Shown here piece by piece: positions 17,148 through 36,582 of a stretch of DNA of 64,000 nucleotides. The position numbers and the translations under genes were made by a program. Under the pieces are notes generated by a model. That model worked only from the letters and a program-made list of their open reading frames with translations, was not told the DNA's origin and made no database searches. Numbering within the stretch: the stretch's first letter is position 1; every line of letters begins with the position of its first letter. This DNA is from Longimicrobiales bacterium (GTDB lineage Bacteria; Gemmatimonadota; Gemmatimonadetes; Longimicrobiales; Gaopeijiaceae). The stretch is from positions 178,871-242,870 of the forward strand of contig CBDCKN010000012.1 in assembly GCA_965218295.1 (NCBI GenBank), in the 5' to 3' direction.

Positions 17148-17158
17148 AGCCGCACCCT

Positions 17159-17452: not shown

Positions 17453-17457
17453 AATGT

Positions 17458-17755: not shown

Positions 17756-18070
17756 TCAGTCCCAGTGGCCCTCGGCGTCGCTCTTGAGTGCGCGGGCGAG
17801 TTCGGGATCGCCCTCGCCGCGCCGGACGGAGCGCTCGGCGAGATCGACGCGGCGTCCCAGATCGGCGAGCCCGGCGGCTCGGGCGACGGCGTAGAGGGCG
17901 GCCAAGACGGCGGCCAGCGCCAATGCCAGGTGCAAGGCAATTGGAACGCCGTGGTCCGCCAGGATCAGTGGCCAGAACGGCGCGAGATACTCGAGGCGCG
18001 ACCCGGCGAGGAGGACGCCCGAGCCGACAAGTGCGGCGCTGAGGCCGGCGCTGATACGCCAGGGTTGCAT
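17756..18070 (-). CDS. Small membrane protein
   Basis: Two hydrophobic segments; last gene of the virB11-ardC run. Confidence 0.65.
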   Translation of the reverse strand: MQPWRISAGLSAALVGSGVLLAGSRLEYLAPFWPLILADHGVPIALHLALALAAVLAALYAVARAAGLADLGRRVDLAERSVRRGEGDPELARALKSDAEGHWD

Positions 18071-18079
18071 GGGGGTGTG

Positions 18080-18967: not shown

Positions 18968-18990
18968 CTCCTAGGGCTCCGTCCTTGGCC

Positions 18991-20019
18991 TCAGCGGCTC
19001 GGGCCGGAGCTCCGGGTCGGGACCGGCAGTGGGAGCTCCGGCCTTGCGGTGTGCTGCGGGGCGGGAGCGCGGGTGGCTGCCACCGGTGCCGGCTCGCGCT
19101 CGGCCTGGCGCTCGCGGCTTCGGGTGAGCACGAAGTCGGAGATCTTCTGCGCGTCGGCCGCGGCGCGGCGGATCTCGCGCGGATCTTCTTCGAGCGCCTG
19201 GATCCAGCCCTCGACGTAGGCGGCCCCCCGGCTCGGGTCGTGGCCGACGCCCACGCGCTCGCCCGTCATCATTGCGCTGATCTCCGCCCGTAGCTCCTCC
19301 TTCGCATAGGCCGGTGAGCCGAACCCTTCGCCGATCCCTTCGATCAGCGTTGGGCGGTTCATCCGTTCCGGATGGCCGGTGCTGTGCCCCAGCTCGTGCA
19401 GGGCGGTCTGGTAGTAGTGGTTGGCCGAAGGGAACTGCACCCGCTCGGGGAGCACGATCTCGTCGCGGTTCAGGTTGTAGAACGCCCGGTCTCCCGCCAC
19501 GTGGCGGACGGGGACTCCGCTGTCTTCCAGCACCCTCTCGGCCTGCTGGTGCACCTTCCAGAGCGGCTCGGCAGTGGGCGTCGGCCGAGCCGGCAGCCCG
19601 TCCGCCTGTTCAGCGTTGAAGACGGTGTACTGCCGGACGACGGGCGTGGGCATCCGCTCGTGGCGGTAGACGCGATTGCCTTCGTTGTCCCTGACGGGCC
19701 GGCCGCGCTCGTCGTTGACGGCGATCTTCCGGTGGTCCTGGAACGAGAGGATGCGGGTGCCCTGCTCGCCTTTCCGCACCTGTCCGTCCCGGGCTTGGAT
19801 CTGGAGGTAGGTTCCCCAGCGGACGTCGCCGTAGCCGCGCTCCTGCTGGACGGCGGCAAGGTGCACGCTGTTTCCTCCCGCGTAGGAGCGTCCCGTATCG
19901 ACGTTCGCGGGGAGCACACGCTCGCCCGGTCCCCAGGGCTTCTGCCACGGTGCCGTGCCCTGGCGGATCTGCTCGATGATCGCATCGGCGAACTGGCGGT
20001 GATATTCGTCGTGTTTCAT
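18991..20019 (-). CDS. ardC: ArdC-family antirestriction/ssDNA-binding zincin-like protein
   Basis: PWQKPW; YAGGN; GQVRKGEQG; YTVFNAEQ; HELGH; YAKEELRAE. Confidence 0.9.
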   Translation of the reverse strand: MKHDEYHRQFADAIIEQIRQGTAPWQKPWGPGERVLPANVDTGRSYAGGNSVHLAAVQQERGYGDVRWGTYLQIQARDGQVRKGEQGTRILSFQDHRKIAVNDERGRPVRDNEGNRVYRHERMPTPVVRQYTVFNAEQADGLPARPTPTAEPLWKVHQQAERVLEDSGVPVRHVAGDRAFYNLNRDEIVLPERVQFPSANHYYQTALHELGHSTGHPERMNRPTLIEGIGEGFGSPAYAKEELRAEISAMMTGERVGVGHDPSRGAAYVEGWIQALEEDPREIRRAAADAQKISDFVLTRSRERQAEREPAPVAATRAPAPQHTARPELPLPVPTRSSGPSR

Positions 20020-20216
20020 AGCTCTTCCTCCTCGGGGCCGTGCGGATCCTCCGAGGCGTCTCGGATCTCGTCCTCGCTGCCCACGTCCTCGGAGAAGAGG
20101 CCGTACTCTTCGGCCAATGAGGCCGGCACCTCGAGGGCCTCACCCCCGTCCCGCGCGAGCTCGCGGTCGAAGTCGTCGAGCGTCTCGACGCGAACGATCT
20201 TGTCGTCGCTTTCCAT
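20016..20216 (-). CDS. Small highly acidic protein (66 aa)
   Basis: AAGGAG RBS; stop overlaps the ardC ATG; 25 D/E versus 5 K/R. Confidence 0.7.
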   Translation of the reverse strand: MESDDKIVRVETLDDFDRELARDGGEALEVPASLAEEYGLFSEDVGSEDEIRDASEDPHGPEEEEL

Positions 20217-20220
20217 GGCC

Positions 20221-21204
20221 TCACTCCTTTTCTGTTTGTTCTTCATCGTCCTTCCTCCAGACGGGTTCGGTGAGCCAGCGGTTGGCGGCCGCCTCGTAGC
20301 CCTTCACACGGAGCGCTTCCTCGACGAACCGCCGGCCCCCTCGCCGGGTCATGTGGAGGACGAGATGGATCCCGTCGACCACGCCCCGGCAGGTGACCTC
20401 CCAGGGGAGCGCCCCTCCGGCCTGCATGGCGCAGCTCGCCAGGCGCGAGAGCGCCGAGCGGGCGTTGTTCGCGTGGACGGTGGTGAGCGATCCCCCGTGG
20501 CCGGTGTTCAGCGCCTGGAGGAGATCGGCGGCTTCGCCGCCCCTGACCTCGCCGACGACGATGTGGTCGGGCCGGTGGCGGAGCGCGTGCCGCACCAGGT
20601 CACGGATCGACACGGGCGCCTCGGAGCCCACCGCCCCGGCCTCGAACCGCAGGCAGTTGGTCCGGTCGATCCTGAGCTCGAGCGTGTCCTCGATGGCGAC
20701 GATCCGCTCCTCCTCTGGGAGCAGTTCGATCAGGGCGTTCAGCAGTGTGGTCTTCCCCGAGCCGGTGCCTCCGGAGACCAGGATGTTCCGGCGGGAGGCC
20801 AGCACCTTCCGGGCGGCGCGGAACACCGTCTCTGGCATGGCGCCCTGGCCGACGAGGTCGTCGGCTGAGAACGCGCGGCCCCCGAACCGGCGGATCGTCA
20901 TAGCCACGTGGGGGCTCGCGGGCGGCGTGCAGATGGCGACGCGGGAGCCGTCCTCGAGCCGCGCGTCGAGGATGGGCCGTGTGGCCGGATCGAGCCCGAG
21001 CGGCCTGGCGATGTGGATCGCCGCCCGGTGGAGCGCGGCGGCGGTGAGCGCCGGTGCCTCGAGGGGCTCGAGCTGACCGCCGCGCTCGACCCAGACGTTG
21101 CCGGGGCCGTTGATCATCAGCTCGGAGACCTCCGGATCCTCGAGCACGGCCTCGAGGCCCGGCAGGAACGGTCGCAGGTGCGCGATCCCGCTGGCGCGCT
21201 TCAT
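20221..21204 (-). CDS. virB11: VirB11/CpaF-family secretion ATPase
   Basis: DPEVSELMING; SGGTGSGKTT; IEDTLEL; LRHRPDHIVVGEVRG; NTGHGGSLTTVHA; ATG overlaps the virD4 stop. Confidence 0.88.
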   Translation of the reverse strand: MKRASGIAHLRPFLPGLEAVLEDPEVSELMINGPGNVWVERGGQLEPLEAPALTAAALHRAAIHIARPLGLDPATRPILDARLEDGSRVAICTPPASPHVAMTIRRFGGRAFSADDLVGQGAMPETVFRAARKVLASRRNILVSGGTGSGKTTLLNALIELLPEEERIVAIEDTLELRIDRTNCLRFEAGAVGSEAPVSIRDLVRHALRHRPDHIVVGEVRGGEAADLLQALNTGHGGSLTTVHANNARSALSRLASCAMQAGGALPWEVTCRGVVDGIHLVLHMTRRGGRRFVEEALRVKGYEAAANRWLTEPVWRKDDEEQTEKE

Positions 21205-22481
21205 AGCCGGCCATCCTCGCGGAGCCGCCAGTAGCCCACGTCCCTCGGCAGGTAGTGGGGCTTCAGGTAGACGCGCCGGGCCGGAAGGGACTTCGTGCCG
21301 TCGTAGGGCAGGCAGATCGCCTGGTAGTTGGCGAGGAGTGTGAAGTCCCTCGGCGTGAACACCGGCTCCCGGGCCTGCCGGAACGACTTGCTCGCGCCGA
21401 TCGTGCCCCGTCCGCCTCCGGCGCGTCCCGAGAGCAGCGAGAACTCCGGCCGGCCCGTGGTCTCGGTGAACGTGTAGGAGGGCTGCGTCTTCATGACGCT
21501 GCCGCACATCTCCGAGGCGATCCTGGCCGAGGACTCGTCGGAGAGCGACAGGAAGATCCGGGTGCGGAGCGTCTGGACCAGCGTGCGCCAGGCCTCCGTG
21601 CCCGACAGCACGGAGCGGAGCGAGGAGATCGACTGCGTGGCCACGATCGGGATGCAGCGGCACTGCCGCGTCAACGCGAACGCCTTCTCGTCGCCAGCGG
21701 GGTCGTCCTGGCCCACGGTGGCGAACGCCTGGTACTCGTCGCAGATGAACACTGCGGGCCGGAGGTAGCGGCCGGGCCGGCGGGCGGCCTCGGCGGGCCG
21801 GCGTAGGAGCGCCTGCATCCAGGCGTTCTTGAGCAGCACGCCGATCGCGCGACCGAGCGCCGGGTTGGCGCCCGCGGGCATGTTGAGGGCGAGGACCCGG
21901 CCCGACTCGATCAGCTCGGCGAGCGGCGGCAGCCGGCGGCGGAGGCCCGGCATGGGCCGGACGGCCTCGGGGTCCTCGTCCGGCGCAGCACTATACATAT
22001 GTATGGATTCGTCCGGGTCCGGAGCCGGCGGACAGAACACGCTCGCGACCTGCGGCTGGTCGAAGAGCGAGAGGAAGACGGAGATGCCCTCGACGATCGA
22101 GGTGCGGAGCTTGGCATCGAGCGCCATCCAGTCATGGAGGTACCACCGCTCGATGGCCTCCACCTGGTCCTTGAGTTCGCTCCCCGCGCCGCTCTCGCCT
22201 TCCTCGGTCTCGAACGGGATCTTGAGCTCGGCGAGCCGATCCCGGAGGACCGGGTCGAGCCGGCACGTCACCGTGTCCTCACCGGAGGTATATATCCAGA
22301 CCCAGTCATTCAGCGCTTCCGGATGGCCGATCATGTCGTCGTGGGAGATGACGACGCGCGCCGGGCACGCCTCAGCCACCAGGTCCTGGGCCTCGCGGAT
22401 TCTCTCGGCGAATAGTTCCGCGTCGATCGTGCAGCGGTAGACGTCCTGCAGCGTGACCCAGCCCCCCGGCAAGAGCCGGTG
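21201..22481 (-). pseudogene. virD4: VirD4/TraD-like coupling protein, 3' segment (interrupted gene)
   Basis: Walker B FICDEYQAF, IVATQSISSL; continues in frame from 45830-45771 across the GCCGGTG core. Confidence 0.85.
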
Positions 22482-22892
22482 CAACCTATCTAAAAGGCTC
22501 GTAAGTCGTTGTGGCTAAAAGCTCATCTGCTCTGGGTATCTGTATTGTGCCCCCAGAGTTGCCCCATAATCGCACCCGCATCCAGCGCTCGCCATCAGCG
22601 TCCATTGCGATCCAGCATAGCGGAGCCATCGTCTCGGCCCCGCGGGTGCCAGCTGGCCGGCGCGACCGCCCCACAGGGCAGCCTAGTAAGAATCATGCTA
22701 TATCATCCTATCGGGTCCGATAATGTATAACCTAGGATGTGGTACCACTCTTGGGGGCAGGTCAGTTCACTGCCGTGGGCCATGAAGAACAACAAGGCAC
22801 TCGACGACAAGGGGCGTCCGACGCCCGCGACGAAGGGACGGAAAAGGAAGAGCTGGGACTTCCGTTCTGCCCCTAATCGCCCCGGCTGGAAG

Positions 22893-25800
22893 CTAAGGGT
22901 CGGCGGTGGGGTCAAAGCCGAGGTTTCTGGCCCAATCGAAAGCTTGCTCCAAAAGCTTCCGCTGCGAAGGCATCAGCTGGTCCCCTGCCTGAATGAGTCG
23001 GGGAAGTGCCTCAAGTTGATCGTAGACCGACCACTCCACTTGGGGTCGCAGGACGATCCAGCGACACAATCGACGAACCAAGACCTCCTCTGGCACTGGT
23101 GCCGGAGGGACGGCAGCAGTTGCGCGCTCAACCTCAACATCGACCTCCCCGGTCGAGGTCGCGAAACCTGCCCGATCCCTCACGACAACGCCTGAGGTCT
23201 CGACCGGGGAAGGAACGAGATCGGGGGACTCCGAGATATCAGGCACCTCGACTTCGACTGCGGGATCCATGAGCGTCTGCATGGCGTCCCGAGTAGGTTG
23301 CCGGGCGAGCCCCTTGAGGACCATATCGATCTCTCTTTCGGGATTGAGAAGCCACCTTCGCCCCGAGACTCGGTGCACGGGCCACCCAGCACGCTCTATT
23401 ATGTCCTGACGTTGGTAATCCTCGGGCCTGAGTTGCCCCAAATCGTCCATCTTCCAATCCCCGTCGCATTCCACCGCTAGCTGGCGCCCGCCGGAGTCCT
23501 CTACGACCAAGTCGATCAGATATCGACCACAAGGAACCTGTGTCGTGACTCGCAGTTCGTGGTCCCGCAGTCTATTGCAAACGGCTTCCTCGAATCGGCT
23601 ATCGAATTGATCGGGCCATTCTCCCTCTACATCCCAAGCTTCTGCTCGATCATGCACTCCTTTCGCGTGTTCCAGGAAGCCTCGGATGGCGCCGTTCGGG
23701 AACTGGTGCACTGGCAACGAAACGAAGCAGATCGCCCTCTCCTTCGCTCTAGTGAATGCGACGTTCAGCCTCTCTTCATACCGTTGAATGGTCGTGATCG
23801 AGCCCGCATGGCTCGAGGGACCTTGTCGAAAGGAGTAGAGGATGATGTGGCGCTCGTCACCCTGAAACCCGTCTGCCGTCGAAGCGACAATCTGGTGCCG
23901 TTTGATCAAGTCTGGGTCTTGGTGGAACTCTCGAGCCAGAAGTAGCTGGATTAACTCCGCTTGATGCCGAAACGGAGAGATAGCACCTATCGTCTTGCCC
24001 CTACCCTCTCCTGATGTGATAAGGCGGCGGATCTCGCTTACCACCGCTGCACATTCCTGAGGGTTAACTTTTCTGTCACGGTCCTCGTCGGCCTGCATGA
24101 GCTCTCGCACTTCGAGGGGGAACCTCGCCCGGTCAGGCACACGACGAGTGAGGATCTGGAGCTGATTGTCGTAGAATCGGTCATTTGACCACCGGATAAT
24201 GGCTGGGTCGCAGCGAAAATGCTCGTCTAGAAACCGGCTCGCATTACTGCAGGCTTCGGCAAGTTCCAGCAGACTCCCCTTGCCGTCCAGAAAATGAGCC
24301 TTGGGGTGTCGGTCGATCTGGTACTCCGCCTGAAGCAACCGTACAGTGTTTCCTGAGAGGAACATGGAGGTCACTGGCTGTAGCTGCTTCTTGTCACCTA
24401 CGACGATCATCTTCCTTGCCCTGAACGCCAAAGGAAGGGCCGTCGCTTGGCTGCACTGGGATGCTTCGTCAACAATCAGATAGTCGAACAGGCCCGCCTT
24501 CGGCGGGAACAGGCGCGCCGCATCATCGATAGTGCAGATCCAACAGGGGAACACTCTCAACACAGCGTCGTAGTCGATCGAGTCTCTCAAGGCTAACAAC
24601 GAGTCGTTGAGACGCTTTCGCGCTAACAGCTTCCTGAGTGTCAGTAGGGGAACGCGGATCGCTGGAAACTGCAGCGCCTTATACGCGGCTAGTTCCCGTT
24701 TCCTCTTGATGATCTCCGAAATCATCCTGCGACGCTTCTCTTGACCCTTACTGAGTGCCTCTGAGATCTCCTCCAGATTGTCCGGATGCACCGACAGACT
24801 GCCTCTAATCAGACCGGAAAGGCGATGGGCTTCCATCGCCTTTTCAGCTTCACGGAGCCAATCAGGAATCTCTCTGCGGTCCTGAATGAGCGATCGGATT
24901 TCTTCGAGTGTATTGGAAAGGTGAGACAGTTCGACCGTTTCCAAGTCAAGCATCCGTCGGTAGTACCCGTAGTTGCGGGTCAACCTCTTAAGCTGTCCGA
25001 GGGCTTCCGACGCTTCTTCCGACAGGACGCCTTCTTGGATTCCGTCCGCCACGGCTGCAACCCGCCCCCGCCAGGGTTCTTGCAGACTTAGCGCACCGAT
25101 TAGGCCACTTGTGACACTCTGGCGGGCAATCCACCGTCGTGCCTCTTTCAGAGCGTCTGCCAGTAAGTCCCGTGAATCTGCGGTAGCAAGGAGGTGAGGA
25201 TTTCCGTCGTCCCCAAACGCACTATTGAAATCCTCCAGCGGTATCGTTTCCAACTGAATGAGCATCTGAACAGCGGTATCCGCCCGCGACGCTACGCGAA
25301 GGACAAGCTCCTTGCCCCTCGGCCGAGTTGACCCAAGGGACTCCAGCGGGACACGGGGGAGAAGGTCGTTGAATTGAATCTCAGCTTCGGTGTAGGATTC
25401 CAACCACAGCAGGGCGTTGTTGATGTCACGGAGATCCGACAGTCGACTCCCCCTTCGCACACCGAAGTCCCACTCTCTCAGGCGACGTCGGGACCGGTAT
25501 ACTTCTGGGCTAAGGAACCACCATAGGAGATTGGAACCGCGTTCGCGTAGTATCTCAGCATCCTTGCGGATCCGACCTGCGCCAGCTTCCAGCGCGTTCC
25601 AGTCGTACTCTGAGCCCCTTAGGGTCGAAGCCTGGAAAAATCTGGTCAGGCTCCGCATACTGGCCAGCCATTTATCGAGTCGCTCTCTCCGTATCGAGGA
25701 GAGGGCCTCAAGCCAATTGCTTAGTGTATCGACCTCCTCGGGACGCTGACCGAGATCTCGGAGGTTTCGTTCGATAGCGGGACCCTCTGAAGCGAGCCAT

Positions 25801-27539
25801 TCCTCCAGCCGCGAGATAACAGCAAGAGGCTGATCTCGGTCTAAAGCGGTCAGGCGCTCCGCGATACTACGACCAGAATCACTGACAGGAGTGTCGAGGG
25901 ACTCCGCACTCTCAATCAGATTTAAGAGAGTCTTGGCAATCCCCGTCTCTCTTACACGGGTCGTCTGAGGGCCATCTGGTCGAAAGACGGCTTCGAACGA
26001 GGGAAGCCCCGAGAGAAGGGGTTGGAACAGGTTCGCCCACTCCCGCAGAAGTCTCGCAGTTTCCTGCGGTTGCTCTTCCACAGGGTCGTCTAGGGGAGAC
26101 ATCTGGTCGTACTCGCGGAGGTCCTCATAGCGAGAGAAGCTCGGGAATTCCTCATGCTCGAGACGTCGGAGTTCCATGAAACGCCGGCTAAGCCGCCGGA
26201 GCTCTCGGTCGTTCTGTAGCTGTGCCGCCTGCCCCCGTTCGATGGACTCCGCAGTGAGGTGGTCCGGAGGACGGTCCTGTATGCCCTCCAGCTGTGTCCG
26301 CAACTTCTGTAACGATTCTTGATCGCCAGACAGCATCGATAGAGCTAGTCCGTCGAATCCGCTGAGCATCTTGCTCAGCACCTCCATCGCCTTTCGCTGG
26401 TGACTCGTCACGAGTACGGAGTGGCCTTCGGTAACCAGGTGGCAAACCAGATTGGCGATCGTTTGGGACTTGCCGGTTCCGGGTGGTCCTTGGACGGTCA
26501 GGACATCGACACGGGTGGCCGTCTGGGCAACTTCACGTTGGGCCCGATTCGATGGAAACGGGAACCACAGCGGGTCTCCGCCGTCTGCAGTATCCTCAAA
26601 CGGGAGGTGTATCGCGTCGAACTCGGGCGCTCCCTCTCGGGGAACATCTCCGACGATTTGGGCGAGGACGCTGTCGCCCCCGGGATTGGACTGTGCCCCG
26701 ATCGCTCTGAGATCGGACAGAAGAAACGCGTAGGAGCGGGGCCCGTTCGCGAGAACCGGCCTCATCGTAATGAGAGCGGGGTTTGGGTCCTTGAGAGAAC
26801 CCAGCTGTTGCAGGAATTCCTTCAGCGAGCAGTCTAATGCGGCGATTTCTTCGCACTGGGCCAGAGGTTCGAAAATCCCTGTGAGCACCTGTATCAGTTC
26901 AGGGATCCTGGCCGGTCCGAAACCATCATCGTAGAGGAGAGGTAGGAGTTTCTCGTTTGCAAGTGAGATGTCATCGGGGTCATCCGCCAACTTGCCCAGG
27001 AGAATCGTGTTCAGGTCAGGGGTACTGTTCCTTCGGCGTAGACGGACTTCACGGCTCCTCGGGTCGTAGTCAATATCCATCTCCCAGACCAACAAAGGCC
27101 CCGTGATGAGTCTCCGGCCCATCCGAGCCCCAATGAGTGGGAACCCCAGCAGCGTTTCCCGGTTGTGAGGATCGTTTCGCTGCTTTCTTGCTATTCGGCG
27201 CAGTGTTGCCGCAGCTTGGGGGTCAGGGCCCTCTAGCTGTTCGCCCTGCCCCGTAGAGTCCTGTTCGTCGCCAGCGGCTTCCTCCTCTTCTAGCCCCGCC
27301 AACTCAAGCTCTGCGTCCTCCGCCTCCGAACTAGAGTTGACCTCGAGTTTCAGGCAGAGCTGCGCCGCTTCAAAGATCTCCTCGTCGCCCTGGGCGAAGC
27401 TCGCCAAGTCCGCTGTGAGGCCATACCGCAGGGCCTTCCGCAGGTCATGAAGGTGTGTAGCTCCGGACTGAGAGCGGAGAAGCGCGTCATAGAACTTCGC
27501 GAGGCGCGGGGTCCAGGCTCGCCAATCGAACTCAGCCAT
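22893..27539 (-). CDS. UPF1-like SF1 helicase fused to C-terminal Vsr/DUF559-like nuclease (1548 aa)
   Basis: QGPPGTGKS; IVDEASQ; VGDKKQL; EHFRC; DGFQGDE; RLNVAFTRAK; then DSRFEE...IDLVV...LAVECDG...RQDIIERAGW. Confidence 0.9.
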   Translation of the reverse strand: MAEFDWRAWTPRLAKFYDALLRSQSGATHLHDLRKALRYGLTADLASFAQGDEEIFEAAQLCLKLEVNSSSEAEDAELELAGLEEEEAAGDEQDSTGQGEQLEGPDPQAAATLRRIARKQRNDPHNRETLLGFPLIGARMGRRLITGPLLVWEMDIDYDPRSREVRLRRRNSTPDLNTILLGKLADDPDDISLANEKLLPLLYDDGFGPARIPELIQVLTGIFEPLAQCEEIAALDCSLKEFLQQLGSLKDPNPALITMRPVLANGPRSYAFLLSDLRAIGAQSNPGGDSVLAQIVGDVPREGAPEFDAIHLPFEDTADGGDPLWFPFPSNRAQREVAQTATRVDVLTVQGPPGTGKSQTIANLVCHLVTEGHSVLVTSHQRKAMEVLSKMLSGFDGLALSMLSGDQESLQKLRTQLEGIQDRPPDHLTAESIERGQAAQLQNDRELRRLSRRFMELRRLEHEEFPSFSRYEDLREYDQMSPLDDPVEEQPQETARLLREWANLFQPLLSGLPSFEAVFRPDGPQTTRVRETGIAKTLLNLIESAESLDTPVSDSGRSIAERLTALDRDQPLAVISRLEEWLASEGPAIERNLRDLGQRPEEVDTLSNWLEALSSIRRERLDKWLASMRSLTRFFQASTLRGSEYDWNALEAGAGRIRKDAEILRERGSNLLWWFLSPEVYRSRRRLREWDFGVRRGSRLSDLRDINNALLWLESYTEAEIQFNDLLPRVPLESLGSTRPRGKELVLRVASRADTAVQMLIQLETIPLEDFNSAFGDDGNPHLLATADSRDLLADALKEARRWIARQSVTSGLIGALSLQEPWRGRVAAVADGIQEGVLSEEASEALGQLKRLTRNYGYYRRMLDLETVELSHLSNTLEEIRSLIQDRREIPDWLREAEKAMEAHRLSGLIRGSLSVHPDNLEEISEALSKGQEKRRRMISEIIKRKRELAAYKALQFPAIRVPLLTLRKLLARKRLNDSLLALRDSIDYDAVLRVFPCWICTIDDAARLFPPKAGLFDYLIVDEASQCSQATALPLAFRARKMIVVGDKKQLQPVTSMFLSGNTVRLLQAEYQIDRHPKAHFLDGKGSLLELAEACSNASRFLDEHFRCDPAIIRWSNDRFYDNQLQILTRRVPDRARFPLEVRELMQADEDRDRKVNPQECAAVVSEIRRLITSGEGRGKTIGAISPFRHQAELIQLLLAREFHQDPDLIKRHQIVASTADGFQGDERHIILYSFRQGPSSHAGSITTIQRYEERLNVAFTRAKERAICFVSLPVHQFPNGAIRGFLEHAKGVHDRAEAWDVEGEWPDQFDSRFEEAVCNRLRDHELRVTTQVPCGRYLIDLVVEDSGGRQLAVECDGDWKMDDLGQLRPEDYQRQDIIERAGWPVHRVSGRRWLLNPEREIDMVLKGLARQPTRDAMQTLMDPAVEVEVPDISESPDLVPSPVETSGVVVRDRAGFATSTGEVDVEVERATAAVPPAPVPEEVLVRRLCRWIVLRPQVEWSVYDQLEALPRLIQAGDQLMPSQRKLLEQAFDWARNLGFDPTADP

Positions 27540-27978
27540 CTGGATTCTCCGGAAGAATCCCCTCCTGTGAGTACCGAAGGACGATCTCTATGCGACGGTC
27601 TCTCGCTAGTGCGAGTGCGGTCGTGTCCGAAGGGTCAGAAAGTGGATGGAACTCTCCCCTTCCGACAGAACTGAGCCTAGCGTTTTGGAGGAGCGATGAC
27701 GACGAGAAGAGACGGACCACTTCAGTCGCCCTTCGAGCGGAGAGTTGCCAGTTGTCCTCGATCCCAGCCTGTTGGCAGACTATTCCGGTGACACCCTGCC
27801 GGTCGGCGTGCCCCTCTACCTGCACTGACTCAAAATAGGATTCCTGGTCGCCAAGGACTGCCCCTAGCACTATGAGGAGTTCACGCCCCGTCGGCCTCAG
27901 GTCGTCACGGCACTCCTCAAAGACCAACTCTCCCGTAACGGAACCTGTCAACGCCAGTGAGACACTCTTGGAAATCAA

Positions 27979-28986
27979 TTAGAGAGCAATCTCCTGTGTA
28001 GTGAGGGATGGGGTGGGAGGATTGATCCAGACGGCCTCCGGGAGTGGTTTAGGCTTCGGCTCACCGGAGACGAAGCGCTCGGGATGAGCGGCCCATGCCT
28101 CACGGAGCACGGCCTTCCTGCAGGCGATGATCCGATCGGCGTGACCGAAGTGGACCTGTTCGGGGGTCAGCATCGAGATGCCGCCATGGCGGTGCTCGGC
28201 ATTATACCAACGGAAGAACGAGCGACAGAAGGTCTTGGCTTGCCCCTGATCCCCGAACCGGCCGGGAAACGAGGGATGGTACTTCAAGGTCTTGAACTGA
28301 GCCTCGGAGAACGGATTGTCATCCGAGACCTGGGGTCGGCCCAACGAGCGGGTCACGCCGAGATCGGCGAGTAGTTGAGCCGTGCATTGGCTCGTCATCG
28401 GAGCCCCTCGATCGGAATGCAGGGTCAGGAGGTGGGGCTGGACGCCATGCTTCAAGCAACTCTGCTGGATCAGCCGGCTGGCCAGGGCAGAGTTCTCCCG
28501 ATCCGCCACCATCCATCCCACGACGTAGCGGCTGAAGATGTCCAGGATCACGTAGAGGTAGAAGTAACTCCACTTCTTCGGCCCCAGCAGCCGGGTGATA
28601 TCCCAGGACCAGACCTGGTTCGGGCCCCTCGCCATCAACTCGGGCTTCTGGTATTTGGGATGACTCCGCTGCGCTCGACGCTCCTGAACCGGCACCTGGG
28701 AAGCCAGAACGCGATACATCGTACGCTCGCTGCACAGGTAGACGTCCTCGTCGAGCAGCGTCGCCACCACCTCGGCTGGGGACCGGTCCACGAACCGCTC
28801 CGAACACAGGGTGTCGAAAATCTTGTCCCGCTCCCTCTCGCTTAAGGCCCGGGCGGGGGTCGGGCGGGGCTGCTGATGCCCGGTCGATGCACTCCGACGA
28901 CGGTAGAACGTGGCTCGCGGCACCCTGAGCGCATCGCACGCGGGCTTCACCCCTACGTGCTTGGCTAGCTCCTGGGTCGCCTTCAT
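27979..28986 (-). CDS. IS3-family OrfB DDE transposase
   Basis: PNQVWSWDIT; LDIFSRYVVGW; HSDRG; DNPFSEAQFKTLK. Confidence 0.92.
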   Translation of the reverse strand: MKATQELAKHVGVKPACDALRVPRATFYRRRSASTGHQQPRPTPARALSERERDKIFDTLCSERFVDRSPAEVVATLLDEDVYLCSERTMYRVLASQVPVQERRAQRSHPKYQKPELMARGPNQVWSWDITRLLGPKKWSYFYLYVILDIFSRYVVGWMVADRENSALASRLIQQSCLKHGVQPHLLTLHSDRGAPMTSQCTAQLLADLGVTRSLGRPQVSDDNPFSEAQFKTLKYHPSFPGRFGDQGQAKTFCRSFFRWYNAEHRHGGISMLTPEQVHFGHADRIIACRKAVLREAWAAHPERFVSGEPKPKPLPEAVWINPPTPSLTTQEIAL

Positions 28987-29432
28987 GAGTTCGTCCCGTC
29001 CTCGAGGCTCAATCCCAGCAGCCCTGCAACTTTTCCCTGGACGTCGATGATCAAGTGCGCCTTCTGGAGCTCCTTTTCGAGGCGAGTGTTCTCGCGCTCC
29101 AGCTTGCGCACCTTCTCCTCCAGCGGATTGCGCTCGCGCTTACGGCCTCGTTTCTTCGACAGCGCTTTCAGGGACCCGCTATGCGCCGCCTTGCGCCATG
29201 TCGTCAGGTGCGACGAGTACAAGCCCTCCCGCCGTAGGAGTCGGCCAACCTCTCCGGGCTCCGTGCACCGGTCCGCTTCTTCGACGATCCGCAGCTTGTA
29301 CGACGGAGCGAACCGCCGGCGCAGCGGCCTATCTACCACCTCCGAGTCCGCAGGAGCTGCCGCGCTTCGCTTACCGTCCCAGGTTGGTGGGGCTATTCCA
29401 TTCTCTTTCATTCTCTCTCGGTGTCTCAGCAT
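28983..29432 (-). CDS. IS3-family OrfA (HTH)
   Basis: RRRFAPSYKLRIV...LLRREGLYSSHLTTWR plus coiled coil. Confidence 0.85.
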   Translation of the reverse strand: MLRHRERMKENGIAPPTWDGKRSAAAPADSEVVDRPLRRRFAPSYKLRIVEEADRCTEPGEVGRLLRREGLYSSHLTTWRKAAHSGSLKALSKKRGRKRERNPLEEKVRKLERENTRLEKELQKAHLIIDVQGKVAGLLGLSLEDGTNS

Positions 29433-29781
29433 CCTCGGTTTCTCTGCCTTCGCCCTACTCTAATTCCTTAGCTGCTCCGTGTCTCACGTAAGTTGGCAGA
29501 GAGGGTAACTCGGATCCGCTGACTAAGGCCGTCTTCACTCACAACCTCGACGTCGATTCCCTCCCGCCGACCAGCCTCTGCCCGGATCTGGACTGCGACT
29601 AGGTGCTTCCGGCGTTCAATTTCTTCTTGGACGAAAATCTGTTCGTAATTGAGAAATTGGGCCAGGATGAACAACACAAAAACGAGAAGCATGGACAACG
29701 CCACATCGCCGAGTGTTGCCCAGTGCTTGGCCTCCTCATTTCGATGGTCGCCAGGGCTCGGAGACAGCCGCGTGTCCATGA

Positions 29782-31497
29782 CTACTCTAACCCCTGTAGA
29801 TCTTCACGGATCTCTTCAGGAGAGATGCTGAGATTACGTGGCTCATTCTCGGGTAGGTTCCGTGAGTCGGCGCCTTCGGCTCCCGGTTGGCCGTCGTCTC
29901 CTCTCTCCCAGGACTCAGCCGGACGGGGAGTCCTAGCAGTGATTGCCGACGTAGAAAGCCCCCCCCTAGAGGTGTCCGCTCCAGCCAGATCCCTCAACTC
30001 ACGCCCCAACGCGTTCAGGCTGGTAGCTACACGATCACTGTTGCCGCGCTGAGATCCGATCAGGCGTTCGCCCATGAGATCCAGGCTCTCTCGGAGAGTC
30101 GCTCGGATTCCTTCGACCATTTCTTGGCTCTGGTTCAGGGCCCTCCGGGACTGGTCAGCAAGCAACCGCATCGTCTCCCGGTACGTCGCTTGAAACTCGT
30201 CGAGAGACATCGTGACCCGTTGCTGACTCTTCGATTGTTCCTCTGTCAGGCGGGCGACCGAAGTCAGTGTTTCGCGCAGACCATCTCGAAGTGCCTCAGC
30301 AGTCTCTCTTCCCATCTTCTCTATGGCTTGATCGGCCTGCTCCCAGGTGCCACTCGCGGCCTCAAACGAGCTATTGAGACGCTTCAGCACGTCTTGGAGC
30401 TCTGCTAACAGAGCGCGCTCACCGGAGACCGCCTCTCCGAGAGCCTTTGCTGCTGCTTCTTGCCGCTCAAGAACGGGGCGAACTGCCCGCGTGTGCTCGG
30501 TTAGCGTATGTGCGAGAGACTGCTGCTCAGAGCGAATCGTTTCCTCTAGTGCATGCTGGACACGGGGAAGGAGTTGGCCCGACGCCCGAACCCCTTCTTG
30601 GAGCTCCTCGGTTGTCGCCTTCACCGTTTCCACGTACTGGGCCAAGCTGAGGCTGTCTTCGCTCCTCTCTCCGATGATCTCCAACATGGCGTCTCGGAGA
30701 GAGCCCACTTGGTTGAGCAGCTCCGTGCTTTGGTCGCGGAACTGATTCCCAAGTGCCTCAAATCCGACGCGAACATCCGTTAGAGTCTGATCGAGGCCCT
30801 CTTTCAGGATTTCCCGGGTTGCTTCAAGCTCCTTCACTGCATCGCCCATGCGGGACTCCTCTGTTGTCTTGAATAAAGGAGCCCACTGGGTTGATGATAG
30901 TTCCTCCAATTTACGGATTGCCCGGCTCTGCTGATGTCGAAGTATGGCCAAGACGGACCCCACCAATACGGATCCTCCGACGCCGGCTAAAGTGGTCGAG
31001 AAAGCCACTTCCATCCTACCTAGAGTGGCGAGAATAGCATCCACCATTTCCTGCGTTCCCATTCCGCCCCTTAGCAGGGTCGTCGACAACTCCGACACCG
31101 CTAGACTTAGCCCGACCAGGGTGCCGGCGAGTCCAAGAAGGACAAGGATCGAAGTCCCCCAGCGCGCGATAGGTGCCGCATCTCGGAAGGTCTCTGCAGA
31201 GATAGCGGCGAGCATCTCCGTATCCACTGGCTCCCCACTAAGCTGAAGTCTCTTGAGGAGAACCAGACGGTGTTGAACGAGGCCATTGGGTTTGGCCTTT
31301 TCGGCAAGGGTCAGCAGCGCCTCGGAGTGGTCCTGCTGCCCCTTTTGTTCTAGGTCTTCGAGATCCTTCAGAGTGGTCCGAACATCGTTCACTAACGTAT
31401 GGACGACCTGCGCAATACCTACCGCGGCGATGGCTGCGATCACGAGGTTGAGGAAGACGCCGACGGGTTGATCCGGTGGAAGAAAGAACTCAATCAT
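29782..31497 (-). CDS. ZorA/MotA-like ion-channel subunit with long cytoplasmic helical tail
   Basis: Three TM segments; LGLAGTLVGL and AFSTTLAG MotA/ExbB motifs; about 380-aa helical tail; 2 nt from the zorB-like start. Confidence 0.85.
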   Translation of the reverse strand: MIEFFLPPDQPVGVFLNLVIAAIAAVGIAQVVHTLVNDVRTTLKDLEDLEQKGQQDHSEALLTLAEKAKPNGLVQHRLVLLKRLQLSGEPVDTEMLAAISAETFRDAAPIARWGTSILVLLGLAGTLVGLSLAVSELSTTLLRGGMGTQEMVDAILATLGRMEVAFSTTLAGVGGSVLVGSVLAILRHQQSRAIRKLEELSSTQWAPLFKTTEESRMGDAVKELEATREILKEGLDQTLTDVRVGFEALGNQFRDQSTELLNQVGSLRDAMLEIIGERSEDSLSLAQYVETVKATTEELQEGVRASGQLLPRVQHALEETIRSEQQSLAHTLTEHTRAVRPVLERQEAAAKALGEAVSGERALLAELQDVLKRLNSSFEAASGTWEQADQAIEKMGRETAEALRDGLRETLTSVARLTEEQSKSQQRVTMSLDEFQATYRETMRLLADQSRRALNQSQEMVEGIRATLRESLDLMGERLIGSQRGNSDRVATSLNALGRELRDLAGADTSRGGLSTSAITARTPRPAESWERGDDGQPGAEGADSRNLPENEPRNLSISPEEIREDLQGLE

Positions 31498-31721: not shown

Positions 31722-32063
31722 CTACACAGCCCCCAACCTCTGTTTGATCTTGCCCGTGACCAGTCTGACCTGGGCCGCCGACACCCGCCCCAGCTTCGAG
31801 GCGTCAGACGCGTCGATCGTCGCTATCTTGGCGCTGCGGATGACGGAGGGGACGGGCAGGCCCGCCAGCTTCAGGTTGGTGACTGGCACGTCGTCGGGCC
31901 AGCCTCGGTTCTCGGCGCTGGTAATCATGACGACCCACAAGAGTCCGTACAGATCCTGGAGTTGAGCCGTCGATACGACCACGGCTGGTCGCGACTGCCG
32001 CGTCGCGCGGTCCGTGTACGGGAACGGCACCTTGATCACGTCACCGCGCTCAAAGGTCCGCAT
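31722..32063 (-). CDS. PemK/MazF-family toxin
   Basis: RGDVIKVPFPYTD...SRPAVVVS...VMITS; start refined to ATG at 32063. Confidence 0.88.
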   Translation of the reverse strand: MRTFERGDVIKVPFPYTDRATRQSRPAVVVSTAQLQDLYGLLWVVMITSAENRGWPDDVPVTNLKLAGLPVPSVIRSAKIATIDASDASKLGRVSAAQVRLVTGKIKQRLGAV

Positions 32064-32268
32064 AGGCCGTGGTATCCGCTTCTGATCGCCATTCCTCGAA
32101 GGTGTGGAACGGGTCGTCTGTTGTGGTGCCTCGCCGCGCCTTGGTGAGAAAGACTCGCCCATCGACGATCTCGTACAAAAGCTCGTCGCCCGGCTGCAGT
32201 CCGAGCGCCGCGCGGATCGGCCGCGGGATGGTGGTCTGGGCCTTGGAAGTCAGCTTGCTGACGATCAT
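32050..32268 (-). CDS. AbrB/PrlF-like antitoxin
   Basis: SKLTSKAQTTIPRPIRAALGLQPGDEL; GAGGTGA RBS; overlaps the toxin. Confidence 0.88.
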   Translation of the reverse strand: MIVSKLTSKAQTTIPRPIRAALGLQPGDELLYEIVDGRVFLTKARRGTTTDDPFHTFEEWRSEADTTAYADL

Positions 32269-32844
32269 GACACTCACCTCGGGTTGGTTGGCATGCGTGC
32301 TATTGTAAGGAATGTCCTTACTTCTGTCACCCTGACCTGTGTGCGCCGGGAGGCTGTTGCCCAGCGTACGCTCACCCTCATATAGTTGGCTGTCTTGCAT
32401 TTACGGCCCTGCCGCAGTAGCGGACAGGCCGCCCCGACGGTCTCGGAGCTAGACGGGAGTCGTCTTTGGAATGTCTCGACCGGCATCTCAGAGGGTAGCC
32501 ATTGTGCGCGCCCATCGCACCCTCCGCAGAGATCACTCGCGTCGAACGACCCCTTGCAGGAAGCCAAGTCATAGCGATGAGGATGCCAGCGCTGCCGATG
32601 CTGGTGGGCGTCGTCGCGGCGGCGGCTGATGGAAGACTGCACGGCATGCCTCGGTGGGGAGCCCGCCGGGGGCATCCTTGATCCACCAACCGGCGATTCG
32701 CACTGACCTCATCCGCCCGTTCTCATCGCCGTCAAGCGTGAAGATATGAAGGCCCTTCGGGTTGTTCTCGCGGATCGTGTCTGCGACGATTGAGACGGGA
32801 TCGTTGCTATGTCCACAGCCTGACATCCTCGGAGGACCCACACA

Positions 32845-35061
32845 TTGTCGAGATTCAATCCTCATCACCTAGTCGAGCCGATCTACAACGCAGCTGCCCG
32901 ATGGCGGGAGAGATGCTTGGAGACCGACGAATCTGCACTCTCGGATAGCAAGAATCTTTGGACACCGGATCTGCTAGACGAACTCGACCGCTGGTTCGGA
33001 CAGCACCGCGATGAGGGTGAAGGAAATTTTTTAGAAAAGCTCGAATCTCAGCTAACACGGGGATCGCCAGCCTGTCGGCAGCTGATGGCCGAGCACCTAT
33101 GGATCCTGATGCTGTTCCAGACGAATGTCGGTGCGGCCAAGAAGCGCGACAACGTCCGTCAGGTCTGGTCGTGGTCCGGAGAGGAACTGGCAGAAGACCA
33201 TTCACTCCTGAGCGACGGCGTTCTAGGGGGCATCGGATCCGCGGGAGCGGCCTTCAATATGCAGCGCTGGCTCGAGCTCATCATGCTAATTGCCGCTGTT
33301 CGCGATTTTAAGAGGCGTGGGGCTGATGAACGCGCCGGGATTGTTGGTGATCCGTGGTCGTTCACCAAGTGGGTCAATGCGATACCTGAAGCCCGCAACC
33401 GCCAGTTCCGCCACATTCTACCTCATCTTCTGTATCCGGACACCTTCGAAAGGATCAGTTCGGGAAGAGACAAGTGCCTGATCGTGGCGGCCTACGGTGA
33501 CAAGTCGGAGAAAGAGGTCAAGAAGTTCGACCTGATCGATATGGACCGGGCACTTCTCGATCTCCGCAGACGGTGTGAGCGGAAACAAGGCACTGACATC
33601 GACTTCTACGAAGACGAGTTCGTTCGCGTATGGCGCAATCAGACCAACAACTGGCTGCTTAGCTGGAACCCCACAAAGTGGACCTGGACATCTCTAGCCG
33701 AAGATCGCGCATCGACGCTTGTAGGAGAAAGGGTTTCAAACTGTTGGCGATGTGGTTCAACGAAACCACGCGAGGGTGATCGCGTTTACCTCATGCGAAC
33801 GGGTGTAGCGCCGAAGGGTATCGTCGCGGTTGGTACGGTGACACGTGCACCATACGAGGCGCCTCACTGGGATAACGAGCGTGCGGATGCGGGCGATACC
33901 GGACGCTTCATCGATGTTGATTTCGACGCGATTCGGGATGCCGACCAAGAGAGCATTGTTCTAGTGGACGAGCTCGAGCGCCAAGAACCCCAACAGCAAT
34001 GGAATCCGCAGTCCTCAGGCATCGAGATCAAGAGGGAGTCGGTACGGACGCTTGCGCGCTTATGGAAAGCACTTCCGTCAATCAGTACCTCGGTCAAGCC
34101 GGCGCAGGTCACCCCGCTCAACATCATCCTCTACGGACCACCAGGGACCGGAAAGACTTTCCGCCTGATTACCGAATACCTGCCCCGATACAAGGATGCC
34201 GGCGAGGACCGGTTCGTGTTTGTCACCTTCCATCAGAGCTACGCATACGAGGACTTCGTCGAGGGCATTCGCCCGAAGACCCGGAACGGCACTGTAATCT
34301 ACGAGGTGCGACCGGGTGCGCTGCGACGAATCTGTGACCGGGCAAGGAAAGCCCCTGACAAGCGGTTCGCCCTGTTTATCGATGAGATCAACCGTGGCAA
34401 CGTGCCGAAGATCTTCGGGGAGCTGATTTCACTCGTCGAGATTGACAAGCGAATCCGGACCGACGCCTTAGGGAAAAGGATGCCAGGCTGCAAGGGACTC
34501 GAAGTGACGCTTCCCTATTCCGGAGAGCGCTTCGGCGTGCCGACGAACGTTGACGTTATTGGCACAATGAACACCGCCGACCGATCGATAGCGCTGCTCG
34601 ATTCCGCCCTGCGCCGCCGCTTCCGGTTCCAGGAACTGACACCGCAGCCCCGGCTCTTGAAGACCATCACCGATGGCGCGGGGAGTCCGATAGATCTGCA
34701 GCAGCTGCTCGAGACCATCAACGATCGACTCACCCATCTGCTGCACCGCGATCAGACCATCGGCCACAGCTACTTTTACGAGGTGAAGACGTTCGACGAT
34801 CTACAGCGTGTTTTCGCTCGCGAGATCCTTCCGCTGCTCCAAGAGGCCTTCTACGACGACTGGAGGCAGATCCGCCTTGTCCTGGCGGATCAAGCAGTCA
34901 GTGAGGAATTCCAACTCGTGCGCGCACGCGTGCAATCTGCGAAGCAGCTGTTTCCAAACGCTGACATGGCCGAGACCTTGGACGGCGAGGCCTATGAGAT
35001 TGTTCGCGAGGACGAGATCACGCCTGACGCCATCCGCAAGATCTACGAGACAGCGGAGTGA
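32845..35061 (+). CDS. mcrB: McrB-family AAA+ GTPase with internal EVE/PUA-like domain
   Basis: YGPPGTGKT; TFHQSYAYEDFVEG; IDEINRGN; GTMNTADRS; WLLSWNP...GDRVYL...GIVA; TTG start uncertain. Confidence 0.9.
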   Translation: MSRFNPHHLVEPIYNAAARWRERCLETDESALSDSKNLWTPDLLDELDRWFGQHRDEGEGNFLEKLESQLTRGSPACRQLMAEHLWILMLFQTNVGAAKKRDNVRQVWSWSGEELAEDHSLLSDGVLGGIGSAGAAFNMQRWLELIMLIAAVRDFKRRGADERAGIVGDPWSFTKWVNAIPEARNRQFRHILPHLLYPDTFERISSGRDKCLIVAAYGDKSEKEVKKFDLIDMDRALLDLRRRCERKQGTDIDFYEDEFVRVWRNQTNNWLLSWNPTKWTWTSLAEDRASTLVGERVSNCWRCGSTKPREGDRVYLMRTGVAPKGIVAVGTVTRAPYEAPHWDNERADAGDTGRFIDVDFDAIRDADQESIVLVDELERQEPQQQWNPQSSGIEIKRESVRTLARLWKALPSISTSVKPAQVTPLNIILYGPPGTGKTFRLITEYLPRYKDAGEDRFVFVTFHQSYAYEDFVEGIRPKTRNGTVIYEVRPGALRRICDRARKAPDKRFALFIDEINRGNVPKIFGELISLVEIDKRIRTDALGKRMPGCKGLEVTLPYSGERFGVPTNVDVIGTMNTADRSIALLDSALRRRFRFQELTPQPRLLKTITDGAGSPIDLQQLLETINDRLTHLLHRDQTIGHSYFYEVKTFDDLQRVFAREILPLLQEAFYDDWRQIRLVLADQAVSEEFQLVRARVQSAKQLFPNADMAETLDGEAYEIVREDEITPDAIRKIYETAE

Positions 35062-36308
35062 AATACCTGAGCCTACGTGAGAGGGATGTCATCCGCGTGG
35101 GCTCTGATGGCCAACTCTCGCAGCGCGAAGCTGATAGCATTGCGAAACTTGCCACTTTCCTGCCGAAGGGATCACTGGGCTGGGAGCACCGCGCGCTCCG
35201 TTTTGGCCCGTTCTGCGGTGTGCTTAGGACGCGCGAAGTGTCGATCGAGTTGTTGCCCAAAATCGACCGTGGCCTCGAAACCACGACCGACAAGCGGGGA
35301 CTGCTCGTTGCAATGTTGGCTGCCGCAGGCAAACTCCGCCTCGCGAAGGTCGGCCAGGCCGGACTAGCGCGGCAGACCATCCACCTTCTGGATATCTTCA
35401 TTCAGGATTTCTGCGCCCGCGTGAAGGCGGCACTACGCGTAGGTGTCATCGCTCTCTACACCGAGAGGAGCGAGAACCTGAAAGCTATCCGGGGCAAGCT
35501 TCAGCTGACGAAGCATCTGCGTCGAAACGCTTTCGATCGGTCGCAGCTGCTTTGCCGGTTCGACGAGCACACCATCGACAATCCATTCAACCGGGCCCTG
35601 AAAGGCGTATTGCGTCTCTTGCTCGGTCACTCGCTGGACCCGCAGACGAAATCCAGGGTAACGTCGTTGCTCCATAGGCTGGATGAGGTCGCGGATAGAC
35701 CCGTGCAGATAGCCGACCTGAATGCACTCAGTTTCGACCGAACCAACAATCACTGGCGCGACGTCTTCAGCCAGGCAAGGTTTCTCTTGGCCGGACTATT
35801 CCCTGATGTGCGGATCGGTGACGCATGGGGTTCGGCCCTGCTCTTCAACATGGAGCGCCTCTTCGAAGAGGTCCTCGGGCGACGGATCATGCGGGAATCT
35901 CGCAAGTTAGTTGGCCGTCAGCTGCATGTAGATCTTCAGAAGCCGCAGCGGCACCTCTCGACCACAGACTTTCGGCTTCGGCCCGACATTACGATCCAGG
36001 ATGATGACCAAGTCGTGGCGATCCTTGACGCTAAGTGGAAGCAGCTGATCCCGAGCGAGCCGAACGCCGGCGTGTCGAGCGCGGATGCCTATCAGATGAA
36101 CGCTTATGCCAGCCGGTATCGCTGTAAGCGGATCACCCTAATCTATCCGGCCTCTGCACGGTGCGCTCCAGGGCGTGTCCGGGAGTTTCGCTTCCAAACC
36201 TCGGGCCAACCGATCCTCGACGTCGTAGCAGTAGACATTCACGACCTTGCGTTCGGAAGCACTATGCCGGCCGGACTGGAGGGAGTGATACAGTCGGGAC
36301 GGTCATAG
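35058..36308 (+). CDS. mcrC: McrC-family nuclease
   Basis: IELLPKI; DNPFNR; FNMERLFE; RPDI...DAKWK...DAYQMNAY; GTGA overlap with mcrB. Confidence 0.9.
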   Translation: MKYLSLRERDVIRVGSDGQLSQREADSIAKLATFLPKGSLGWEHRALRFGPFCGVLRTREVSIELLPKIDRGLETTTDKRGLLVAMLAAAGKLRLAKVGQAGLARQTIHLLDIFIQDFCARVKAALRVGVIALYTERSENLKAIRGKLQLTKHLRRNAFDRSQLLCRFDEHTIDNPFNRALKGVLRLLLGHSLDPQTKSRVTSLLHRLDEVADRPVQIADLNALSFDRTNNHWRDVFSQARFLLAGLFPDVRIGDAWGSALLFNMERLFEEVLGRRIMRESRKLVGRQLHVDLQKPQRHLSTTDFRLRPDITIQDDDQVVAILDAKWKQLIPSEPNAGVSSADAYQMNAYASRYRCKRITLIYPASARCAPGRVREFRFQTSGQPILDVVAVDIHDLAFGSTMPAGLEGVIQSGRS

Positions 36309-36582
36309 AAGCAGAATCAGCAGGTCGATAGAGCCCGCGCGGAGGCATGAGAATCTTTCTGCCTCGAAATCATCCGCTCGGCGGCGGATATGATCTCCGC
36401 CAGCGGATCCCCGATCTGCGCTAGACACGGTAAGTTTTGTCAATGGTCATCGAAATGAGACACCTCGGGGCGGCGATCCGCCCGCAATCGCCGCCCATGT
36501 GATCACACCGACTACCATACTGCCACTGCGCGGGTGCGGTACGGATCGCCCGCGCCCCAGCGCTGAACGGAAGAGCCCGACA

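Follow-up and report, generated by a model that had tools for sequence, protein, structure and literature searches.

Papers of 2025 and 2026, in the sections we draw on, name three types of Zorya system (PMC11890865, PMC11946911) or describe type I only. In type I, recruitment of ZorC and ZorD, the proteins that degrade phage DNA, is described as depending on motor function and on the tail of ZorA (PMC11946911), while in type II ZorAB is described as recruiting ZorE (PMC11890865). Type III is organised as ZorF-ZorA-ZorB-ZorG and has no helicase. Hhe, ProA and PDC-S37, which resemble one of the proteins discussed below, are single-gene systems. Here we analyse a stretch of 64,000 nucleotides from a Longimicrobiales bacterium (phylum Gemmatimonadota; contig CBDCKN010000012.1, positions 178,871 to 242,870), hereafter the window, in which a minus-strand operon encodes a ZorA-like protein, a ZorB-like protein and a helicase-nuclease. 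We consider it fairly likely that this motor and its co-inherited helicase-nuclease form an undescribed Zorya-like anti-phage type, which would have arisen by recruitment of a stand-alone Hhe-like enzyme. The features of the trio, in coordinates of the window, are the following.

29782..31497, minus strand: ZorA-like motor A subunit, 571 aa, recognised by ZorA models, hydropathy and predicted fold
29506..29779, minus strand: 5' part of the zorB-like gene, 91 codons, with the transmembrane (TM) helix and Asp25, recognised from the intact orthologues at loci L003 (227 aa) and L080
27939..29505, minus strand: insertion sequence (IS) of 1567 bp within zorB, with an HTH_Tnp_1 open reading frame (ORF; 28983-29432), an rve integrase ORF (27979-28986) and a TTA target duplication
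27532..27938, minus strand: 3' part of the zorB-like gene, OmpA-like peptidoglycan-binding domain (PF00691, E = 6.7e-11; ZorB1 and ZorB3 models, about 7e-11)
22893..27539, minus strand: effector of 1548 aa, with an N-domain, an SF1 helicase with an insertion and a C-terminal nuclease

The zorA-like gene (31497-29782) is followed after a gap of 2 nt by the zorB-like gene (from 29779), whose end at 27532 overlaps the helicase start at 27539 by 8 nt; the helicase ORF then runs from 27539 to 22893. These ORF coordinates bear out the tight three-gene operon claimed by the first-pass annotation, an earlier description of the window made from its letters. Its reading of the three products also held up: a MotA-like protein with three TM helices and a long helical tail (hydropathy and AlphaFold model), a MotB-like protein with a TM aspartate and an OmpA-like domain (Asp25 and the PF00691 match, the gene being split by the IS) and a 1548-aa SF1 helicase with a Vsr/DUF559-like nuclease (AAA_11/AAA_12, REase_MTES_1575 and DUF559 matches).

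The ZorA-like protein displays three hydropathy peaks, at about residues 11-36, 114-136 and 168-187, corresponding to its TM helices, and the motor motifs LGLAGTLVGL and AFSTTLAG. Residues G122, G125, T126, A165, F166, T169 and G172 are invariant in all 52 ZorA-like sequences. Among PADLOC models, ZorA3 scores best (E = 1.1e-9), followed by ZorA1 (1.7e-7) and ZorA2 (1.1e-4). The AlphaFold model, built on a 52-row alignment (predicted local distance difference test, pLDDT, 77.6), is all helical and orders the protein as TM1, three short cytoplasmic helices, TM2, TM3 and two further helices (213-275 and 285-503), after which a disordered linker leads to a final, acidic helix. The predicted helical cytoplasmic tail measures about 280 residues. 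The core family members that we checked have about 340-430 residues after TM3, and the core family keeps both LGRELRDL at the end of the tail (497-504) and the acidic last helix (560-570). A Foldseek search with the head returned ExbB at ranks 1-5 and E. coli ZorA (8QYD) at rank 6, then Shewanella ZorA (8VVN), TolQ and MotA; by sequence, the closest solved structure for the family is the type I ZorA 8VVN. On the B side, the intact ZorB-like protein matches the ZorB1 and ZorB3 models from the TM helix onward, the best match of the L003 protein being ZorB3 (3e-17), and the plasmid matches of the L080 protein include a ZorB flanked by DUF3348 and DUF2894, that is, a Zorya III locus (L130).

Which ion would drive this motor? 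G122, T126, A165, T168 and T169 of the ZorA-like protein are spaced like G154, T158, A182, T185 and T186 of PomA, described as its Na+ site (PMC10374538), and the threonine ring of the Na+-bound Shewanella ZorA is likewise present. Because of the match to the PomA site, the motor ion is probably Na+. This prediction is a soft one, since the TT pair also occurs in the three ExbB/TolQ proteins of the host genome, which counts against a firmer reading.

The effector begins with an alpha/beta N-domain (1-282) that resembles DUF4011 at the level of a lead (atlas score 0.88), the Pfam search giving no DUF4011 match to this domain. Its core is an SF1 helicase of the UPF1/DNA2/SEN1 type (AAA_11/AAA_12) with Walker A at 351-358 and DEASQ at 1024-1028, and a helical insertion of about 530 aa (430-957) is predicted within the first RecA domain. 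The C-terminal nuclease (1316-1409) matches REase_MTES_1575 above its cut-off (E = 2.7e-22) as well as DUF559, and carries ECDGDWK. When a model of residues 1-1190 (pLDDT 81) was compared with known structures, AddAB, UPF1, SETX and Aquarius came up, all of them weakly, and neither the N-domain nor the helical insertion found a counterpart. A sequence comparison of the nuclease domain with solved structures gave no match.

Scanning one genome per species for the motif yielded 178 candidates, of which 93 were confirmed and 76 loci kept. One of these loci, L003 from Candidatus Palauibacter rhopaloidicola, has an intact zorA-zorB-helicase trio, and a metagenome scan with the ZorA alignment added three loci: L080, again with an intact trio (ZorA 28% identical, N-terminal 480 residues of the helicase 42%), and L079 and L081, whose contigs stop just past zorA. 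Gene order and overlapping junctions are kept at 22-30% ZorA identity, while the remaining neighbours all change. Relative to L003, the ratio of nonsynonymous to synonymous substitution rates is 0.15 for A, 0.06-0.13 for the pieces of B and 0.12 for the helicase, with synonymous sites near saturation. Upstream of the L080 trio lies a WYL regulator (17-634), and downstream (8028-10180) a 444-aa protein of no known kind and a PLD protein; the L003 trio is followed at 13510-22255 by a three-gene cluster of a small SF1 helicase, a HEC-05/GmrSD protein and a ThsA-like protein.

The helicase tree (FastTree) comprises 96 sequences: 65 database proteins, 30 loci and the window (L023, L024, L028 and L035, which are split, short or distant, were left out). 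The helicase of the window and P0022-P0047 form one clade with support 1.0, and every motor-less locus falls outside it. Walker A and DEASQ are intact throughout this clade, which also has conserved helicase stretches of its own (312-320, 444-452, 520-531 and 932-946). In the outgroup helicase loci (L004-L037 without L035), no ZorA- or ZorB-like gene was found in 33 loci, 22 of which have at least 2.7 kb upstream; this count leaves out a weak profile match in L033 (E = 7e-6, opposite strand, no motor motif).

For proteins available without DNA, a helicase and a ZorA-like protein were paired when their longest contigs had exactly equal length in nucleotides (chance about 0.003 per length). Among the best 120 of 853 helicase matches, a ZorA-like partner was found in this way for 15 of 26 helicases inside the clade against 1 of 39 outside, the latter being a coincidence between a JGI and an ENA contig. 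In the reverse direction, 23 core ZorA-like clusters were compared that lie on contigs of at least 7 kb, and 15 of these match a helicase. Equal lengths can arise by chance: we rejected the identification of P0031 with the L004 helicase, whose lengths agree and whose sequences differ, and also discarded P0073 as motor-linked, its 9731-nt JGI contig matching an ENA contig to which P0025 had been assigned. For the 15 pairs, the ZorA tree and the helicase tree have all 12 splits in common, where shuffled pairings (20,000) never reached more than 7, and the Mantel correlation is 0.66 (0 of 5000 shuffles), or 0.43 for the ten most distant pairs (105 of 5000). The trio is a real, selected and co-evolving three-gene unit. 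Synteny of helicase and motor, a check posed beforehand by the first-pass annotation, holds for one clade, directly in L003 and L080 and through the 15 pairs with identical topologies. The annotation had also stated that helicase-Vsr relatives stand alone, which is correct for most of the family and needs refinement for this one motor-linked clade.

How far is the trio from the described types? With type I (8QYD, 8VVN) it has in common the zorA-zorB-effector order, a three-TM A subunit with a long helical tail, a B subunit with a TM aspartate and an OmpA-like domain, and a soluble helicase-nuclease partner. However, it has no ZorC, its effector combines a UPF1-like SF1 helicase with a Vsr/MTES nuclease in place of the DEAD/DEAQ-box ZorD, and its A subunit is shorter (571 aa against 696-729) with a shorter tail, no predicted beta-hairpin and scores far below the curated cut-offs. 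Like type II (ZorA-ZorB-ZorE), it has three genes and one soluble nuclease effector, but this is an ATP-driven helicase-nuclease of 1548 aa and not an HNH nickase, and ZorA2 is a weak match (E = 1e-4). Type III gives the top PADLOC scores for the A subunit (ZorA3, 1e-9) and for the L003 B subunit (ZorB3, 3e-17), yet no DUF3348 or DUF2894 gene accompanies the trio. The effector itself resembles Hhe (DUF4011-helicase-Vsr), ProA and the PADLOC candidate PDC-S37, all anti-phage proteins and its best named matches, in having a DUF4011-like N-domain, a UPF1-like helicase and a C-terminal Vsr-type nuclease; it differs from them in being tied to a membrane motor and in carrying Lys at the Vsr His position.

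This substitution concerns the active site. ECDGx[W/F]K is found in 25 of 25 clade helicases that reach the nuclease, with the Vsr-type His replaced by Lys, whereas outgroup proteins have His in 38 of 39 cases and Gln in one. Position 1363 of the effector would be the counterpart of Vsr His69, as read from the motif and not from an alignment. In Vsr this His is described as essential and placed as general base (PMC4081097), a role that in PD-(D/E)xK nucleases usually falls to Lys (PMC4081097, PMC3239194). D1343, E1357, D1359, D1374 and R1377 of the effector nuclease are invariant.

Model libraries lead to the same comparison. ZorC, ZorD, ZorE, ZorF and ZorG models have no match among the 21 + 29 proteins of the window and related loci, and no HNH, DUF3348 (ZorF) or DUF2894 (ZorG) protein is found among the neighbours of the trio; genome-wide searches of the host for ZorC and DUF3348 were empty but had no positive control in either case. 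Against NCBIfam (June 2026), the A subunit of the window has no ZorA match, that of L080 scores 20.5 and 20.4 against cut-offs of 100 and 500, and its B subunit 20.8 against 400 for ZorB1; the effector misses both Hhe (162 against 2000) and ProA (255 against 1500). The PADLOC set used here dates from 2023. Full-text literature searches gave no ZorAB with an SF1 helicase, although a listing in the candidate tables of large prediction studies is possible, and a search for a fourth Zorya type returned unrelated materials papers only. Judged from these sequence comparisons, the trio is Zorya by anatomy and not a member of types I-III. The first-pass annotation had proposed both the absence of the known effectors from the operon and a composition that fits no defined type; these proposals stand, no curated ZorA or ZorB cut-off being reached.

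Its assignment of the motor to ZorAB stands for the anatomy and has to be refined for the lineage. A small tree of the TM core, which includes a single Zorya III reference and has deep supports below 0.5, could not place the motor inside Zorya. On sequence grounds, the motor may be a lineage separate from known Zorya. Its nearest relatives with a known context lie beside CHAT-domain proteins (L088, L100, L112) or tubulin-like proteins (L109, L129), in the following distant pairs of a tailed MotA-like protein and an OmpA-type protein.

L100, 4052-5919: tailed MotA-like and OmpA pair, CHAT operon
L088, 8505-10357: tailed MotA-like and OmpA pair, CHAT operon
L112, 9661-12048: tailed MotA-like and OmpA pair, CHAT operon
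L109, 5836-9034: tailed MotA-like and OmpA pair, tubulin-like operon
L129, 5754-7582: tailed MotA-like and OmpA pair, tubulin-like operon

These pairs share with the trio the tailed A subunit and the OmpA-type B subunit, but have other partners and no helicase, and we found no name for them. Tailed MotA-like and OmpA pairs possibly constitute an unnamed class of motor-coupled conflict systems. Closer to the trio, P0157-P0188 form a ZorA-like sister group that scores about 120-230 bits and shares the motor motifs, and one member of which (P0172) comes from a Gemmatimonadales metagenome-assembled genome. This sister group may use another effector, because none of its 10 members on contigs of at least 7 kb matches a listed helicase contig.

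The trio is rare and patchy. It was found in none of 200 genomes of the host's family, both other genomes of the host genus included. Core-family ZorA was absent from 401 genomes of the host's phylum besides the host (three weak matches) and, at the stricter setting of a first look, from 401 genomes of one order, from 401 genomes of the phylum of the L019 host (five distant matches) and from 301 genomes of the phylum of the L004 host (16 distant matches). A whole-genome search of the 34 hosts of helicase loci found the core ZorA family only in that of L003; the L022 host has a distant motor pair beside CHAT genes, and seven more have weak matches only. In viral contigs, 71 pattern matches yielded no confirmed relative; in plasmids none was found, a further search matching the Walker A region alone, where none of 31 records reached 80% coverage. 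Searching with a profile of a wider alignment added no distant member.

The host's own copy of the trio is interrupted by the IS, which we take to be of the IS3 family and of which the 3.57-Mb host genome (91% complete) contains 36 full-length copies, all at least 98% identical. Removing the IS and the TTA duplication from zorB leaves 225 in-frame codons, and the joint reads as in the intact L003 gene. Four of 23 sequencing runs, none of which is listed as an RNA data set, were compared at this site. In X2, X3 and X5, which come from three studies, contigs join across it and carry an IS-free allele, and a single, gapless X2 contig spans 22765-31752 and shows 25 differences; the contigs of X1 run into the IS on either side and stop within its ends. 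On this evidence the insertion is genuine and recent, and we rejected an assembly artefact as its source. The host allele is probably inactive, since the IS leaves ZorB without its peptidoglycan-binding domain, which is described as required in Zorya types I and II (PMC11890865). Other variants occur in these runs: a -1/+1 pair in the helicase of X3 and X5, with the frame regained within 10 nt (25576-25586), an in-frame deletion of 3 nt in zorB of X5 (27641) and a +1 in zorA on a short X5 contig (31356).

By analogy with Zorya I and II, the A and B subunits would assemble as ZorA5B2 (5:2). Disturbance of the envelope by phage entry would lead ZorB to anchor to peptidoglycan, ions, probably Na+, would flow via Asp25, and the signal would run down a tail of some 42 nm if extended. 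The tail would then bring in or activate the single-chain helicase-nuclease close to the site of entry, where incoming nucleic acid would be destroyed, one polypeptide taking the place of ZorC plus ZorD. Candidate contact surfaces are helicase residues 312-320, 520-531 and 932-946 and, on ZorA, LGRELRDL or the acidic end. The ancestor of the clade may have been a stand-alone sensor-effector of the Hhe/ProA kind that later came under motor control. To a bolder formulation we give an even chance: a fourth Zorya type, possibly Na+-driven, in which a ZorAB-like rotor of separate lineage captured an autonomous Hhe-like helicase-nuclease, with an active site retuned from His to Lys, and which would belong to a larger class, so far without a name, of tailed 5:2 envelope sensors that are coupled to effectors as unrelated as helicase-nucleases, CHAT caspases and tubulin-like modules.

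Several observations weigh against a Zorya-like, motor-controlled system. The A subunit is below every curated ZorA cut-off, its head fold ranks ExbB chains above ZorA chains, and the profile of its family scores five of six MotA-like proteins from CHAT or tubulin operons at 30-68 bits (the sixth at 20) against 26 for a Zorya III ZorA. The cytoplasmic domain between TM1 and TM2 is predicted as three helices without beta strand or hairpin (pLDDT about 90), where a beta-sheet has been called Zorya-specific, its generality across types being uncertain (PMC12505986, in the part cited). DNA with the whole trio was read at only two other loci; 13 of the 15 pairs rest on equal contig size, and one is a strain 97-99% identical. 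No pairing was obtained for 11 of the 26 helicases in the clade or for 8 of the 23 core ZorA clusters, but these are not absences, since the best 120 of 853 helicases and 29 of 150 listed ZorA representatives were covered. Neighbouring genes on one island co-diverge even without contact, and the helicase family at large functions, or in any case survives, with no motor. Finally, the His-to-Lys change is not exclusive to the clade: the stand-alone outgroup loci L016-L018, from small-genome bacteria, read ECDGDFK.

Could the signal run the other way, the helicase sensing phage nucleic acid, binding the tail and opening the motor, so that ion leak or depolarisation arrests the cell and the nuclease acts as a binding module instead of a cutter? 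The loss in all 25 clade nucleases of the His kept by 38 of 39 outgroup proteins is in keeping with this, as is the fact that outgroup enzymes need no membrane sensor and therefore carry their own trigger. Yet it is Lys, which most often serves as general base in PD-(D/E)xK nucleases, that without exception takes the place of this His, the other five catalytic-domain positions stay invariant, and the data of Hu et al., in the part we cite, speak against a depolarisation role of type I ZorAB; we regard a reversed signal as unlikely. Somewhat less probable still is a real unit without anti-phage function, which would belong with long-tailed MotA/OmpA pairs to a wider class for conflict or envelope signalling, or would act on DNA that enters by conjugation or transformation. 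The CHAT and tubulin-like contexts of the nearest motor relatives and the conjugation genes directly downstream of the trio would suit it, but the flanks, which consist for the most part of defence genes, are different in each of the window, L003 and L080, the best named matches of the effector are anti-phage, and Zorya I is described as having no action on plasmids (PMC11946911).

That the ZorAB-like pair is an orphan and the Hhe-like helicase a stand-alone enzyme, two independent modules made neighbours by one event, we hold to be very improbable. The helicase is stand-alone in 33 of 33 outgroup loci and linkage alone yields congruent trees, but against such hitch-hiking speak the order and overlapping junctions that outlast all other neighbours at 22-30% ZorA identity, the conserved motifs that the motor-linked clade has for itself and a report that ZorAB alone is insufficient for defence (PMC8565338, in the part cited). 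There is, last, a slight chance that the system is an already named Zorya type or defence system missed by libraries and searches: the PADLOC models are from 2023 and a large prediction study may list it in a supplement, but neither the papers of 2025-2026 nor the NCBIfam release of June 2026, with no match above cut-off, point to one. We thus retain as the preferred reading a probable Zorya-like anti-phage type with a recruited helicase-nuclease.

The surroundings of the trio are those described by the first-pass annotation, which had placed it in a defence-rich island away from flagellar or Tol/TonB genes. The remaining features of the window near the trio are these.

31722-40545 and 52451-56482: defence neighbours, comprising a MazE/PemK-type pair, an EVE-domain McrB with McrC, an LprI-domain protein, a PDC-M57A/B pair and a type IIG restriction-modification enzyme
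22846..22863, minus strand: terminator-like hairpin, weak, 30 nt past the helicase stop

Defence genes adjoin the trio in L003 and L080 as well. Hairpins of this kind are not above chance (three sites against 6.8 expected in shuffles), and no sigma-70 promoter match was found. A flagellar stator MotAB was rejected as the identity of the motor, FliG_C being absent from the 91%-complete host genome (the search control was positive in 4 of 14), and the three ordinary ExbB/TolQ genes of the host are all on other contigs. An ArdC, a VirB11-like ATPase, a TraG/VirD4 piece, a relaxase and a tyrosine integrase (18080-22484, 57406-58863 and 62401-63774) bracket the island, and the TraG/VirD4, VirB11-like and ArdC genes are those directly downstream of the trio. 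Elsewhere in the window, 7185-17147 encodes a predicted surface protein of 3320 aa with near-identical 208-aa repeats towards its N-terminus, about 17150-17440 is a short tandem repeat read as RLPAPGS repeats in several frames, and two IS66 transposase copies lie at 373-2643 and 46894-49164.

The open step of Zorya biology is how the ZorA tail recruits or activates its effector, and the trio offers a natural experiment on this point: with a single-chain effector that has motor-free sister clades, domain swaps could map what puts a nuclease under the control of a rotor. If our reading is true, ZorAB-type sensors would be modular across unrelated effectors, and Zorya would extend to Gemmatimonadota and to uncultured hosts, where current models score below their cut-offs.

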